Below, one piece after another: positions 53,079 through 56,775 of a DNA stretch of 64,000 nt. The translations under genes and the position numbers were made by a program. The notes under the pieces were generated by a model. That model was not told the DNA's origin. It did no database searches and was given only the letters and a program-made list of their open reading frames with translations. The DNA lies in contig DASZWJ010000019.1 of NCBI GenBank assembly GCA_035546635.1, positions 229,386 through 293,385 on the forward strand, given 5' to 3'. Each line of letters begins with the position of its first letter. Position 1 is the stretch's first letter. Source of the DNA: Gammaproteobacteria bacterium (lineage in GTDB: Bacteria > Pseudomonadota > Gammaproteobacteria > JAURND01).

Positions 53079-54251
53079 ATGACCACCTTAACCGGATTAG
53101 ATCTGTTTGAACGAGAATGGCCTTCGAGCTTTAACGCGGCAAGAGTAGGCCTATTGGTACATCCTTCTTCCGTAAATAAAAATCTTACCTATGCTGTAGA
53201 CCTATTTTTGCAATCTAAAAAATTTAAAGTGACTGCATTATTTGGCCCCCAACATGGTATACGCGGTGAAACACAAGATAATATGATTGAATGGGAAGGC
53301 TTCCAAGATCAAAAAACTGCATTGCCGGTATTTAGCTTATACGGAAAAGCTCGCAAACCTACCCCGGAAATGTTAAAAAATGTCGATGTTTTGGTAATTG
53401 ATCTTCAAGATGTAGGGGCTCGCTACTACACTTTTATCTGGACTATGGCGCTTTGTATGGAAGCCTGCGCTGAACTTAACAAGTCCATACTCATTTTAGA
53501 CCGACCTAATCCCATCAATGGGCGTGATATTGAAGGGCAGATTTTAGATCCGCATTACAGCTCTTTCGTGGGGCTGCGTCCACTGCCGATACGCCATGGG
53601 ATGACAGTAGGGGAAATAGCAAGCTACTTAAAAGAAACCTTTTATCCCAAACTAGATTTAAAGGTAATCCCTATGCAGGGTTGGAAGCGTGATATGGCAT
53701 TTGATGAGACAAAATTGCCCTGGGTCATGCCATCACCTAATATGCCGACACTGGATACGGCTTTTGTTTATCCAGGTATGTGTCTATTTGAAGGCACACA
53801 GCTAAGTGAAGCGCGTGGCACCACGCGACCATTTGAGATTTTCGGTGCCCCCTTCATCGACCCGGATAAATTAGTAAAGCAGCTAGATGCCTTTAAATTA
53901 CCCGGTGTGAAATTTAGACCAAGCTATTTTTTACCTACATTCCAAAAACATGCAAATACTGTGTGTGCCGGTGCACAAATTTATGTCACAGATAGAGCTC
54001 AGTATAAATCCGTACAAACAGCGATAGTGATATTAAAAGTGATTCACGACTTGTATCCTTCCCAGTTTGCTTGGAAAAATCCACCTTATGAATATGAGGA
54101 GGAAAAAATGCCCATTGATATACTCGCCGGGAATGATGAATTAAGAACGACTATAGAACAAGGAAAGGACATTTCACAGCTGGAAACCAGCTGGCAAAAT
54201 GAATGCGAGAATTTTAATAACCAGGTCAGGAAGAAATTTTTAATCTATTAA
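53079..54251 (+). CDS. namZ: DUF1343 family protein (exo-β-N-acetylmuramidase NamZ-like)
   Basis: Conserved DUF1343 blocks are present (VGLLVHPSSV…ALFGPQHGIRG). The ATG at 53079 has an AAGGA RBS. The table ORF starts 19 codons upstream without an RBS. Confidence 0.7.
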   Translation: MTTLTGLDLFEREWPSSFNAARVGLLVHPSSVNKNLTYAVDLFLQSKKFKVTALFGPQHGIRGETQDNMIEWEGFQDQKTALPVFSLYGKARKPTPEMLKNVDVLVIDLQDVGARYYTFIWTMALCMEACAELNKSILILDRPNPINGRDIEGQILDPHYSSFVGLRPLPIRHGMTVGEIASYLKETFYPKLDLKVIPMQGWKRDMAFDETKLPWVMPSPNMPTLDTAFVYPGMCLFEGTQLSEARGTTRPFEIFGAPFIDPDKLVKQLDAFKLPGVKFRPSYFLPTFQKHANTVCAGAQIYVTDRAQYKSVQTAIVILKVIHDLYPSQFAWKNPPYEYEEEKMPIDILAGNDELRTTIEQGKDISQLETSWQNECENFNNQVRKKFLIY

Positions 54252-54265
54252 GATGTGTTGTATCT

Positions 54266-55201
54266 ATGAATATATTTATACCTGCTGCGGGATTTGGTTC
54301 GCGCTTATCCCCCATTACCTCCCGTATACCTAAACCTTTACTGCCTATTGTTGGCAAACCCTTGCTAGGATTATCGCTGGAAAAACTCAACCGCCTTAAA
54401 CCTAATCAAATAGGTATAAATCTTCACTATCTGCGCGAAGCCTTAACCCAATGGGTTGCGCATTCGCCGTTGCGCAATAAAATACAGCTATTTCCAGAAG
54501 AAACGATTTTAGGTTCTGGTGGCGCACTGAACAATGCCTATTCTTTATTGTGCCAAGATCACTTTCTGGTTTATAACAGTGATGTGCTATGTGATCTAGA
54601 TTTAGAATGGTTAATGCAACAACATTTGAATTCTGAAAACCTAGTCACACTCACCACCTGTCAGCACCCTAAATTTCCTCATGTTAAAGCGAATGTTGCT
54701 ATTAATTCTGAAGGTTTTTTTCAAGGCGTTGACAAAAAGCTTATTCCTTACGCTAAAGTAGCACAATACGTGGCTTATACCAGTATCGCGATGTATTCCC
54801 CTGAGTTTTTACAATTTTTACCTGCAGGAAAATCCAGTGTGCTAGATGCCTGGTTGACAGTAGCCGCCAAAGGTTATCGCATCGGCACCGTAGATATCAG
54901 CGCTTATGACTGGAATGATATAGGCACTCCTGCCGCCTATTTCTCAGCTGCTATGACTAATTTAAAAAGTACTGGTAAATCGGTTTATATCCATCCTTCT
55001 GCCAATGTCAATCGCACTGCGGTCATAGAAGGAGAGGTGATTATTGAAAGATATGCGGTAGTCGAGTCGGGGGTCAGTATTAAAAACTGCTTACTGCTAC
55101 CTGGTGCTGAGTTAATAAAAAACCGGCGCTATGAAAATAGTATCATAGGGCCCGGTTATGAGCTGCCAATGCTGTCATCCTTCGCTTGCGCTCAGGACTA
55201 A
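54266..55201 (+). CDS. Sugar-1-phosphate nucleotidyltransferase (MurU/RmlA-like N-terminal domain) with C-terminal left-handed β-helix
   Basis: The N-terminus is MNIFIPAAGFGSRLSPITSRIPKPLLPIVGKPLL (NTP_transferase). Hexapeptide repeats occur in the last ~90 aa. The final 10 codons overlap a degenerate palindromic repeat. Confidence 0.7.
   Translation: MNIFIPAAGFGSRLSPITSRIPKPLLPIVGKPLLGLSLEKLNRLKPNQIGINLHYLREALTQWVAHSPLRNKIQLFPEETILGSGGALNNAYSLLCQDHFLVYNSDVLCDLDLEWLMQQHLNSENLVTLTTCQHPKFPHVKANVAINSEGFFQGVDKKLIPYAKVAQYVAYTSIAMYSPEFLQFLPAGKSSVLDAWLTVAAKGYRIGTVDISAYDWNDIGTPAAYFSAAMTNLKSTGKSVYIHPSANVNRTAVIEGEVIIERYAVVESGVSIKNCLLLPGAELIKNRRYENSIIGPGYELPMLSSFACAQD
55171..55198. repeat. Internally deleted family-B remnant (GCTGTCATCC|TTCGCTTGCGCTCAGGAC) at convergent gene overlap
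   Basis: The left terminus is joined directly to the right arm. It encodes the nucleotidyltransferase C-terminus MLSSFACAQD. Confidence 0.55.
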
Positions 55202-56775
55202 GAAACCAACGGTCGATTAAGATAGCGCGAAAATTTAGAGAAGCGCACTAAAAATTTATTATACAGAAAAATATTTATTAATTTTTGCTGCAAAGTATTT
55301 TTTCTTGATTCTTGACTTAGCTTCTTAATAACTACTTTTTCAAAATATTTAAGCTTCATTTCCCTTTTTGCTATCAATCCTTCAATTTCATTTAACCAAG
55401 GTCTTAAAGAATTATTCAGTTCAGCTGAAATGATTTTCTGCTCACCCTCGTGAAATAGCTTTAAAAACAGGCTAAAACTCCATTGTTGCGGGTGTGTTGA
55501 TAATATTCCCTGAATTAAATTTAAATAAATATCAGGATAATTTTCTGCCTTTAAGAACATAGGGCTCAAATTCCTGATCGTGACTATTTTTCTGTGAGTT
55601 ACTTCATAGATAAATACTAAAAATGCTAGAAAAATATTTTTAGGCACCATCACATTACGTGCTGCATCTTCAATAGCGCCAAAATCAATGAGCCGTACCG
55701 AACCCTGGGTAGAAATCAGCACATTCCAAACGCGTAAATCATTATGATAAAGACCATGCGCTTCCAAGGCGGCCAATTGTTCCAGAATGTCACCAATAAT
55801 CACATTAGGGTCATAATCCAGTCCCTTGATTATCATGGTGCTTAATAAAATCCCAGGTATTTTTTCACGCAACACCCAACCGCTGTCTTCATGCATTTCA
55901 AAACCCAACAAGCGCGGCAATACATGAGTCACCGAAAATCCACTTTGCAAAAATTTTATTTCACCTACAAGTTCTTCACGGTTGCTCTCTGCTTCATCAC
56001 CTGAGAGTTGAAAATTTTTAAGCATCGTATTAGTGGTAAAATAATAACGTCGTGAGTCTTTATGTGCATCATTCGTAAATTCATGTGAAGTATTAGTCCA
56101 TGAATCAAAATGCGTTAGCTCTTCATTAATATACCAATAATGATTGCTGCAAAAATAGATAGGACGCTGAATTTTTGACAGGTGGGTATGATGGTGTGAT
56201 ATTTGCTGAAAATAAGCAAATTGATCCAATAATTCATAGGGCTGGTCCGGTAGGGAAGTAGCCCATTTTTCAGGCTCTTCTCTAAGAGCGGTTTCGATAA
56301 GACAGGCTGCCGTTCTTTGTGCTAAAAGGCCAATGAAATTTCGAGTAGTCTCAAATCCGATGTGATGACACAGATGATGAAAAACGCTAAGTCCTATGAT
56401 TAAATCAAACTCTTTAATGGGCAAAGCGTCAATTCCGGCTACACAGTCAGCAACTACAAAAGTCGCAGGCAAGGACAAGACTTTAGATAACTCTGTGCAA
56501 AGCTCCACATTTTGCGGAACTATATCAATACCATATACCTCATCACCAACAGCTGCCAGGTTAAAACAGAAGAAACCCTGAGCGCATCCTATATCTAAAA
56601 TCCGCAATGGACGCTGCAACTCAGAACGCAATTTATCAGCAACACTCTGTACGATCCACCATCTATCATAACAGCTGCGCGATGAATTCCCATCAAATTC
56701 ATTAAAACCATAAATTGGTTGATAGATTTCTGGCAAATTACCAATTAGATATTTTATCTGTGAGTTCGATTCCAT
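55198..56775 (-). CDS. Methyltransferase + protein-kinase-fold fusion protein (WbdD-like architecture); paralog of 3712..5280
   Basis: MTase motif I is LRILDIGCAQGFF. Kinase-fold features are RRYYFTTNTMLKNF, HNDLRVWNVLI and LIDFG. Its stop overlaps the convergent nucleotidyltransferase stop by 4 nt. The gene is noticeably more AT-rich than the flanking housekeeping genes. Confidence 0.6.
   Translation of the reverse strand: MESNSQIKYLIGNLPEIYQPIYGFNEFDGNSSRSCYDRWWIVQSVADKLRSELQRPLRILDIGCAQGFFCFNLAAVGDEVYGIDIVPQNVELCTELSKVLSLPATFVVADCVAGIDALPIKEFDLIIGLSVFHHLCHHIGFETTRNFIGLLAQRTAACLIETALREEPEKWATSLPDQPYELLDQFAYFQQISHHHTHLSKIQRPIYFCSNHYWYINEELTHFDSWTNTSHEFTNDAHKDSRRYYFTTNTMLKNFQLSGDEAESNREELVGEIKFLQSGFSVTHVLPRLLGFEMHEDSGWVLREKIPGILLSTMIIKGLDYDPNVIIGDILEQLAALEAHGLYHNDLRVWNVLISTQGSVRLIDFGAIEDAARNVMVPKNIFLAFLVFIYEVTHRKIVTIRNLSPMFLKAENYPDIYLNLIQGILSTHPQQWSFSLFLKLFHEGEQKIISAELNNSLRPWLNEIEGLIAKREMKLKYFEKVVIKKLSQESRKNTLQQKLINIFLYNKFLVRFSKFSRYLNRPLVS

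Follow-up and report, generated by a model that had tools for sequence, protein, structure and literature searches.

A kinase-less NamZ-nucleotidyltransferase pair converging on a WbdD homologue in a gammaproteobacterial lineage

The AmgK-MurU pathway of P. putida, P. aeruginosa and L. pneumophila combines an APH-family anomeric sugar kinase with a small sugar-1-phosphate nucleotidyltransferase. The two are encoded by separate genes, amgK then murU, as in the canonical pair used here as a calibrator (locus L094), and the L. pneumophila pair (lpg0296/lpg0295) is functional (PMC11957156). According to its founding paper, NamZ is mostly missing where AmgK/MurU occur, and the B. subtilis enzyme (YbbC, CAZy GH171) is secreted with a signal peptide and belongs to a catabolic murQ-murR-murP-amiE-nagZ operon (PMC8054146). 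A nucleotidyltransferase domain followed by a left-handed beta-helix (LβH) makes up the two-domain architecture of GMPPB and VTC1. Finally, WbdD of E. coli O9a (PDB 4azs, 4uw0) carries a methyltransferase followed by a kinase, and canonical members (about 700-800 aa) extend into a coiled-coil “ruler” and a membrane-targeting C-terminus. Characterised WbdD phosphorylates the 3-OH of the terminal mannose of its polymer, canonically polymannose, and then methylates that phosphate.

Here, we analyzed a locus related to all of these within a 64,000-nt stretch of a gammaproteobacterial contig (DASZWJ010000019.1; hereafter the window). A nucleotidyltransferase gene starts 14 nt past the end of namZ on the same strand and converges on a gene for a WbdD-like methyltransferase/kinase, with which it shares 4 nt, i.e., positions 55198-55201 (Table 1). 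An earlier note on this DNA had read these genes as a possible non-canonical MurNAc salvage module in which the WbdD-like kinase could supply the missing sugar-1-kinase step. The three open reading frames, their motifs and the convergent overlap were all real on sequence check, as was a second methyltransferase/kinase fusion elsewhere in the window. The stated absence of AmgK also held, since searches of the window by tblastn and with an HMM of 72 AmgK-like domains turned up no APH-type kinase. The assignment of the kinase step to the WbdD-like protein was not supported. On balance, we lean towards reading the locus as two units, i.e., a kinase-less derivative of a MurNAc salvage cassette and a separate WbdD homologue, with the kinase coming from elsewhere.

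Table 1 Features of the locus and its surroundings (positions within the window).
Feature	Position	Strand	Size and basis
Xre-type regulator, divergent from namZ	52521..52865	-	Pfam HTH_3
namZ, DUF1343/GH171 exo-beta-N-acetylmuramidase homologue	53079..54251	+	390 aa; Pfam NamZ_N + NamZ_C
Sugar-1-phosphate nucleotidyltransferase with short C-terminal LβH	54266..55201	+	311 aa; PF00483
Partial arm of palindromic intergenic repeat	55170..55205	no strand	repeat matches
Short-form WbdD homologue, N-terminal SAM methyltransferase + ePK-like kinase domain	55198..56775	-	525 aa
Paralogous short WbdD-like methyltransferase/kinase gene, between ybeY and ftsK	3712..5280	+	35-38% identity to the 55198..56775 protein

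As in B. subtilis NamZ, both Pfam domains were matched over their full length and well over threshold (NamZ_N: 293.6 bits against a gathering cutoff of 26.9, E 7.6e-88; NamZ_C: 191.5 bits against 25, E 1.8e-56), and the protein matched PDB 4k05 with an E of 1.7e-76. The namZ frame is open from 53022, and the ATG at 53079 is backed by an AAGGAA Shine-Dalgarno sequence and agrees with public gene calls and homologue N-termini. By inspection, no hydrophobic leader or signal peptide was found in the N-terminus (MTTLTGLDLFEREWPSSF), nor a hydrophobic leader in the Nitrospirota homologues. Because the signal peptide is missing, this NamZ is predicted to be cytoplasmic, in contrast to the B. subtilis enzyme, from which it also differs in being coupled to an anabolic-type nucleotidyltransferase and, in relatives, to a kinase as well.

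The nucleotidyltransferase matches its Pfam family with an E of 3e-19. Its best NCBIfam family is MurU (NF045761), at 100.2 bits and thus below the equivalog cutoff of 250, which the MurU of the canonical pair (174.5) misses too. It is 34% identical to that MurU (E 6e-32), its modelled core resembles MurU structures (target-normalised TM 0.84-0.85), and among the matches listed in the fold comparison MurU shows the highest identity to the catalytic core (24-26%). The GxGxR motif and catalytic lysine (AAGFGSRL...K23) are invariant across the family. The unusual LβH tail that had been noted (311 aa versus ~225 for MurU) is borne out by sub-threshold Hexapep and GMPPB_C matches at residues 239-295 and by short repeated beta-strands in the ~239-300 region of the AlphaFold model, and the modelled whole chain matches nucleotidyltransferase+LβH enzymes by fold. 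GDP-mannose pyrophosphorylases are the best whole-chain matches both by PDB sequence (E 3.4e-18) and by fold. However, identity to GMPPB/VTC1 is just ~21-23%, and the genomic coupling to NamZ and an AmgK-like kinase described below points to amino-sugar salvage, not mannose activation. Substrate and nucleotide specificity are not readable from sequence or fold; in the reading favoured here, the substrate would be MurNAc and the nucleotide UDP.

The genomic coupling was evaluated across 80 reference loci from Nitrospirota, Thermodesulfovibrionia, Rokubacteria and others. In 72 of these, nucleotidyltransferase, LβH and an AmgK-like APH kinase form a single open reading frame; in four the kinase is adjacent or frameshifted, and in another four a contig end cuts the cassette, leaving 76 testable for the kinase. 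All 76 carry it, fused to or right after the nucleotidyltransferase-LβH, i.e., no kinase-less cassette was found among them. NamZ is present at 61 of the 80 loci, and at 56 it immediately precedes the nucleotidyltransferase in the same orientation. An exhaustive library search likewise returned mostly 600-700-aa proteins as best-scoring cluster representatives outside the cluster of the window protein, and the family alignment is collinear with these fusions. For the fused kinase, the best NCBIfam family is AmgK, at a score under the equivalog cutoff that the calibrator pair fails likewise, and its identity to the canonical kinase is 31% (E 3e-27). The two fusion halves thus find their best curated families in AmgK and MurU, at 31-34% identity to the canonical pair and with scores far under the equivalog cutoffs. 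These data uphold the proposal that NamZ and the MurU-like enzyme form a MurNAc-salvage-type module. The NamZ-linked fusion cassette is common in Nitrospirota, Thermodesulfovibrionia and Rokubacteria and appears not to have been described previously. It differs from AmgK-MurU in uniting nucleotidyltransferase, LβH and kinase, in this order, in one polypeptide, in the inserted LβH domain itself, and in the genetic coupling to NamZ.

Compared to this cassette, the window has no kinase half, and an AmgK-type kinase pairing was found neither there nor in close relatives. In a neighbour-joining tree, the kinase-less sequences were monophyletic in 94 of 100 replicates, while no replicate recovered the fused sequences as a clade excluding them. 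The gammaproteobacterial clade of the window is nested within the fused clade, and the kinase was lost once, secondarily. The suspicion that a kinase is truly missing from this locus is therefore confirmed. What remained of the fusion did not decay: the nucleotidyltransferase keeps every residue invariant in the fused family, its dN/dS of 0.093 against an 85% identical relative indicates purifying selection, and intact kinase-less frames of 300-311 aa occur across the clade down to 47% identity.

These observations suggest the following scheme. In the parent cassette, cytoplasmic NamZ would free MurNAc from MurNAc-GlcNAc-type fragments, the AmgK-like APH domain of the bifunctional enzyme would phosphorylate it at C1, and the MurU-like domain would turn the sugar-1-phosphate into a nucleotide sugar, so that de novo UDP-MurNAc synthesis would be bypassed. 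The gammaproteobacterial lineage would have gained the cassette, most likely by horizontal transfer, and then lost the kinase domain once, while purifying selection preserved NamZ and the nucleotidyltransferase-LβH. Since the kinase was lost yet the nucleotidyltransferase kept, the sugar-1-phosphate would come from a kinase encoded elsewhere. The kinase step is thus most likely supplied in trans, most plausibly by a canonical AmgK such as the one carried by L. pneumophila, which for this genome is an assumption. The WbdD-like gene would be adjacent by descent within the lineage, not as the pathway kinase.

The convergent gene encodes a full-length WbdD homologue: it matches E. coli O9a WbdD over residues 7-469 (PDB 4uw0/4azs, E 2.2e-91), with 37.5% identity across 459 residues and the same methyltransferase-then-kinase order. 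Its SAM motif (LDIGCAQGFF), N-terminal Tyr motif (LPEIYQ), HxD...N catalytic loop (HNDLRVWN) and DFG motif (IDFG) all align with WbdD motifs. Both the kinase catalytic residues and the methyltransferase active-site motif are intact, and dN/dS is 0.10-0.12. By homology to WbdD, the protein may phosphorylate and methylate the terminal sugar of some glycan. However, it stops ~55 residues past the kinase domain, where canonical members run ~200 residues further, and thus comes without the “ruler” and membrane-targeting region. No O-antigen ABC-transporter genes (wzm/wzt) or mannosyltransferases were noted near it in the window or at related loci, its neighbours being NamZ, the nucleotidyltransferase, an MsbA-like ABC exporter, a Tet(A)-type MFS pump and a trans-aconitate methyltransferase. 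Also unlike canonical WbdD, it has several stand-alone paralogues in its lineage, which occur in unrelated contexts. At least two copies reside in the genome of the window, and the one between ybeY and ftsK has lost the N-terminal Tyr motif and part of the methyltransferase core.

The convergent NamZ-nucleotidyltransferase-WbdD block is kept in relatives. It was found in four lineages, namely the window, L088 (85%), L003 (67%) and L092 (59% nucleotidyltransferase identity), with -4, 155, 363 and 7 nt, respectively, between the two convergent genes. This conservation could be taken to mean that nucleotidyltransferase and WbdD-like enzyme are functionally linked without a kinase hand-off, i.e., that the former was repurposed to use a mutase-made sugar-1-phosphate (such as mannose-1-P or GlcNAc-1-P) for a glycan capped at its non-reducing end by the latter. 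The top whole-chain matches to GDP-mannose pyrophosphorylases and the polymannose substrate of WbdD would fit such a role, as would the greater divergence of the nucleotidyltransferase, which shares 40-48% identity with its Nitrospirota homologues, compared with 55-68% between NamZ and the NamZ encoded 5' of the Nitrospirota fusion genes. Nevertheless, we regard this repurposing as unlikely: namZ still lies immediately upstream on the same strand, the invariant residues of the fused family are all kept, and glycosyltransferase and Wzm/Wzt genes were noted neither among the window ORFs nor in the gene calls of related loci. The GMPPB match itself reflects a shared nucleotidyltransferase+LβH architecture, with the core closest to MurU among the matches listed.

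The takeover proposed at the outset, in which the WbdD-like kinase assumed the anomeric phosphorylation of MurNAc or GlcNAc and its methyltransferase domain would be new to the pathway, strikes us as more doubtful still. The kinase is really missing, the WbdD-like gene abuts its exact former position, the block is kept in all four lineages and the catalytic residues are intact. However, the protein is a WbdD homologue throughout with an intact methyltransferase motif, and a methylated phosphate would be unsuitable for the nucleotidyltransferase. WbdD acts on a 3-OH, which in MurNAc bears the lactyl ether. Likeness to AmgK does not extend beyond the generic catalytic loop, whether by BLASTP against canonical AmgK (E 0.26) or by the HMM of 72 AmgK-like domains (E 0.26, 6.5 bits), and the Pfam APH match is sub-threshold (16.6 bits). 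No WbdD-like gene occurs within 10 kb of any of the 80 reference cassettes, and neither a WbdD-like nor a NamZ neighbour was found at L093, the most divergent kinase-less locus. The paralogues stand alone elsewhere, and the WbdD-like gene and the nucleotidyltransferase are not co-transcribed because they are convergent. Taken together, this suggests that the WbdD-like gene is probably a functionally separate neighbour.

The overlap, too, counts against a takeover, as it is a recent by-product of a repeat. Positions 55170-55205 correspond to a partial arm of a ~100-nt palindromic element (86% match over 29 nt), with complete copies at 46934-47037 and 49814-49917. Closely related nucleotidyltransferases stop at ...LPM (302 aa), and the repeat therefore provides nine additional residues as well as the stop codon and the overlap, in agreement with the suggestion that the last codons derive from a repeat remnant. 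The added tail is predicted to be disordered and lies past the conserved end.

We give similarly little credence to the broader notion that the WbdD-like enzyme is linked in function to NamZ and the nucleotidyltransferase, either as an AmgK replacement or through a cap. In the former case, an ePK-fold sugar kinase would have been recruited to anomeric phosphorylation, non-orthologous to the lost AmgK-like kinase. In the latter, suggested because WbdD and NamZ both act at non-reducing glycan termini, a phospho-methyl group on MurNAc-terminated fragments or strands would block or gate exo-cleavage by NamZ. If true, either version would represent new chemistry in peptidoglycan turnover. That a decayed fusion left behind a nucleotidyltransferase without function, in a cluster with no joint role, is scarcely credible: loss of the kinase domain and a 3' end rewritten by the repeat would fit, but purifying selection, the intact frames across the clade and the retained catalytic residues argue against it, and the repeat is predicted to add just a disordered tail.

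Some observations sit uneasily with the two-unit reading. If a canonical AmgK-MurU pair were present, a further nucleotidyltransferase would seem superfluous, yet this one is conserved. The convergent block has endured in four lineages, even in L088 with its changed upstream flank, and the WbdD-like gene occupies the exact former place of the kinase domain. In addition, both the nucleotidyltransferase and the fused kinase miss the NCBIfam equivalog cutoffs, and GDP-mannose pyrophosphorylases top the whole-chain structures.

Upstream of namZ, the divergent HTH_3 gene was not found at L003. It does precede namZ in the 85% relative L088, where flanks further upstream differ, and it is possibly a local regulator of the locus.

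The NamZ and nucleotidyltransferase genes of the window are a kinase-less offshoot of a wider cassette, lying beside a short-form WbdD paralogue. The three genes of the cluster, from an uncultured MAG (GenBank proteins HVV68434–HVV68436), were recovered by ORF and domain scans as the earlier note had described them, including both kinase motifs of the converging fusion gene (see the table). The start of namZ at 53079, also as placed there, is correct: it follows an AAGGAA Shine-Dalgarno sequence, coincides with the public gene calls and aligns with the N-termini of homologues. 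Its product matches the DUF1343 structure 4k05 (E 1.7e-76), and no signal peptide was seen at its N-terminus by inspection. Scanning the surroundings of the cluster for promoters and terminators gave hits at background frequency, and no tRNA genes were found in the window.

Features of the cluster, the WbdD-like paralogues and the palindromic element (window coordinates unless a locus is named)
Feature	Position	Strand	Evidence and context
namZ	53079..54251 (ORF open from 53022)	+	Pfam NamZ_N E 7.6e-88 and NamZ_C E 1.8e-56, end-to-end matches
Nucleotidyltransferase, 311 aa	54266..55201	+	PF00483 NTP_transferase, E 3e-19; 14 nt downstream of namZ
WbdD-like methyltransferase + kinase fusion, 525 aa	55198..56775	-	Domain matches; motifs HNDLRVWN and IDFG
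Paralogous short WbdD-like gene	3712..5280	+	Between ybeY and ftsK; product 35–38% identical to that of 55198..56775
Third short WbdD-like protein (P0088)	L086 10001-11533		55% identical; stands alone, with Fic, LRR, HEPN and other accessory genes around it
Palindromic element, full copy	46934-47037		Repeat match
Palindromic element, full copy	49814-49917		Repeat match
Palindromic element, partial arm	55170-55205		Repeat match; 3' end of nucleotidyltransferase gene
Palindromic element, partial copy	62537-62564		Repeat match; 3' of ORF ending at 62532

We compared the pair with the 80 matches listed from Nitrospirota, Thermodesulfovibrionia, Rokubacteria/Methylomirabilota, Thermodesulfobacterium and a few other groups, none of the window's lineage. 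Homologues at 40–48% identity are ~600–700 aa long, with an APH-family kinase following the LβH. Nucleotidyltransferase, LβH and APH share one ORF in 72 of the 80 listed loci; the kinase is adjacent or frameshifted in 4 and a contig end cuts the locus in another 4, and none of the testable listed loci (80 minus the 4 at contig ends) holds a kinase-less cassette. NamZ, 55–68% identical to the window protein, is present in 61/80 of these loci and, in 56/80, is the immediate upstream neighbor in the same orientation, which, with the linked AmgK-like kinase, bears out the proposal that NamZ and the MurU-like gene form a salvage-type module. For the fused kinase, AmgK is the best curated family (NCBIfam), and alignment with the kinase of our calibrator L094, an adjacent canonical amgK–murU pair (4988-6708) from another organism (candidate P0029, from another sample), gives 31% identity (E 3e-27). 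Judged from sequence, the family unit is a cytoplasmic NamZ with a putatively bifunctional MurU-like/AmgK-like enzyme, for which family relationships suggest MurNAc as substrate and UDP as nucleotide. Such a cassette would offer a compact path by which MurNAc-terminated fragments become nucleotide sugar.

The fusions of L090 and L091, frameshifted or split, were all that a profile search for further kinase-less loci turned up, and a metagenome scan for such loci yielded none of the gammaproteobacterial clade. At L091 (739-2076), a 309-aa nucleotidyltransferase-LβH stops right at the ATG of a distinct AmgK-like gene, so both fused and unfused states exist in the family. NamZ and fusion genes broken into at least two ORFs in ENA long-read assemblies (L088 8809-9985, L089 8793-9858, and L090) probably reflect frameshift errors rather than real pseudogenes.

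The proteins that end after the LβH, at 300–311 aa, are those of the window and of the comparison loci L088 (85% identity to the window nucleotidyltransferase), L003 (67%), L092 (59%) and, more distantly, L093 (47%). In a neighbour-joining tree with outgroups, the kinase-less clade was monophyletic in 94/100 replicates, while the fused sequences formed a clade excluding it in 0/100, a pattern that indicates a single loss of the kinase within a fused ancestry. Because all other family members belong to distant phyla, the cassette is likely of horizontal origin in the gammaproteobacterial lineage. The window nucleotidyltransferase gene is not decaying, since its dN/dS against L088 is 0.093 and every family-invariant residue is retained. 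An APH-type kinase was undetectable in the window, in agreement with the earlier observation that AmgK is absent there, and in the fetched parts of related gammaproteobacterial contigs; the missing kinase is real and its loss secondary. At L093 (118-1410), the most divergent of the kinase-less genes, there is no NamZ upstream, and the next ORF downstream on the same strand is GNAT-acetyltransferase-like, as judged by eye. At L003, genes for an NlpC/P60 peptidase (14659-15282) and a LysM-YkuD L,D-transpeptidase (18747-19682) lie <8 kb downstream of the cluster; both are missing from the matching part of the window.

Among curated families (NCBIfam), the window nucleotidyltransferase scores best with MurU, reaching 100 bits where the cutoff is 250, and its identity to the MurU of the canonical calibrator pair is 34% (E 6e-32). 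Failing the NCBIfam cutoffs says little, because the canonical pair fails as well (130 of 550 bits for AmgK, 174 of 250 for MurU): both equivalog models under-call divergent members. The LβH extension proposed for this enzyme was confirmed by hexapeptide and GMPPB_C matches at residues 239-295, both sub-threshold, by an AlphaFold model (mean pLDDT 81, core >90), and by whole-chain structural matches of that model to GMPPB, VTC1 and tlr0611. The best solved whole-chain relatives in a sequence search were likewise nucleotidyltransferase+LβH enzymes, e.g., human GMPPB. The modeled catalytic core superposes on MurU with a target-normalised TM of 0.84–0.85 and the top identity among the matches listed. 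The substrate is not fixed by predicted fold and sequence alone, as MurU-like and GDP-mannose-pyrophosphorylase-like enzymes are inseparable by fold comparison.

The end of this gene is repeat-derived, as had been proposed: its last 29–36 nt are a partial arm of a ~100-nt palindromic element. Since relatives at 91% and 85% identity terminate at ...LPM (302 aa), the repeat swapped the stop codon, appended nine residues that the AlphaFold model predicts to be disordered, and created the 4-nt overlap of the convergent genes at 55198-55201. Spacing between the two genes in relatives is 7, 155 or 363 nt, and the overlap is recent and mechanistically meaningless. The palindromic family is intergenic, with arms ~88% complementary; its full copies overlap the hisD and hisH 3' ends, and elements in the window repeatedly supply C-terminal codons or stop codons.

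The converging gene is, by alignment, a true WbdD homologue of a short form. Its product matches E. coli O9a WbdD over residues 7-469 (E 2e-91, 37.5% identity; 42% in the methyltransferase and 34% in the kinase), with the SAM motif, N-terminal Tyr motif, kinase catalytic loop and DFG motif conserved, whereas the ~200-residue coiled-coil and membrane-targeting C-terminus of canonical WbdD are both missing. It belongs to a large WbdD family found in Xanthomonas, Stenotrophomonas, Pseudomonas and elsewhere; the sources of several of these proteins label them O-antigen chain terminators. No O-polysaccharide genes were noted nearby; the neighbors encode an MsbA-like ABC exporter, a Tet(A)-type MFS pump and a trans-aconitate methyltransferase. 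The adjacent MFS transporter was considered as an AmpG-type muropeptide permease and ruled out as Tet(A)/drug-efflux-like. Several short WbdD-like paralogues occur in this lineage in unrelated contexts, namely the second fusion already recognized in the window and P0088, from the same sample as L003. The second window copy retains its kinase motifs but no longer has the LPEIYQ Tyr motif at its N terminus, its methyltransferase core (GLSVFHH) is partly lost, and its methyltransferase may be inactive. A survey of the Legionella pan-kinome describes another kinase-methyltransferase family (Lcin_0519), for which it sees just a remote relationship to WbdD (PMC9758233).

The earlier note had suggested that this WbdD-like kinase supplies the missing sugar-1-kinase step, which we consider improbable. 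The kinase is indeed missing from the cassette, the WbdD-like gene occupies the exact place of the former kinase domain, and four lineages share the NamZ → nucleotidyltransferase ← WbdD-like block, L088, with its differing upstream flank, among them. However, retention of a gene pair ≤363 nt apart in a single lineage argues only weakly for function, none of the 80 other cassettes listed has a WbdD-like gene within 10 kb, and L093, the earliest-branching kinase-less locus, has neither a NamZ nor a WbdD-like neighbor. Moreover, transcription is convergent, and stand-alone paralogues exist. Compared with AmgK as well as WbdD, as the note had proposed, the fusion protein lacks AmgK-type similarity beyond the generic catalytic loop (E 0.26; 6.5 bits with an AmgK-domain HMM), and both WbdD active sites are intact, implying WbdD-like chemistry. 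In the WbdD reaction, a phosphate is first placed on the 3-OH of a polymer's terminal mannose and is then methylated by the methyltransferase of the enzyme; the 3-OH of MurNAc bears a lactyl ether, and a methylated phosphate would be unfit for a nucleotidyltransferase. Of the original interpretation, the salvage module and the missing kinase stand, but the WbdD-like protein as that kinase is not supported.

In L. pneumophila, an amgK–murU pair lies near lptD/surA. If the MAG resembles that species, which has a functional amgK–murU pair (lpg0296/lpg0295), reportedly without NamZ (PMC11957156), the kinase could instead be supplied in trans by AmgK, and the fused kinase would thereby be dispensable. 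We lean toward this composite explanation, its main uncertainty being the source of the sugar-1-phosphate. Recycling of peptidoglycan sugars through AmgK–MurU provides intrinsic resistance to fosfomycin, and Legionella requires AmgK to grow inside cells (PMC11957156). NamZ has so far been assigned to catabolic, extracellular pathways and is reported as largely absent where the anabolic AmgK/MurU route occurs (PMC8054146). The B. subtilis enzyme is secreted (PMC8054146), whereas that of the window would be cytoplasmic.

Our literature search found no description of a NamZ-linked nucleotidyltransferase-LβH-kinase fusion, and the cassette, pairing a putatively cytoplasmic NamZ with this single polypeptide, is apparently undescribed. 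The comparisons point to a cassette common in Nitrospirota and neighboring phyla, its kinase-less branch occurring in gammaproteobacteria that look host-associated. Biochemical confirmation would make it a new entry route into the recycling map, from MurNAc-GlcNAc disaccharide to nucleotide sugars, and a one-protein tool for cell-wall metabolic labelling. This broader cassette is the more valuable lead; a WbdD hand-off is unlikely but would be striking if true. The neighboring kinase is from the WbdD family, and adjacency by itself is no proof of pathway membership. The lineage looks host-associated, with an expanded WbdD-like kinase/methyltransferase family. L088 encodes a 976-aa Sel1-repeat protein, and a 522-aa protein of the window (9240-10808, + strand), with a long Ser/Thr-rich low-complexity stretch, resembles secreted effector-like proteins.
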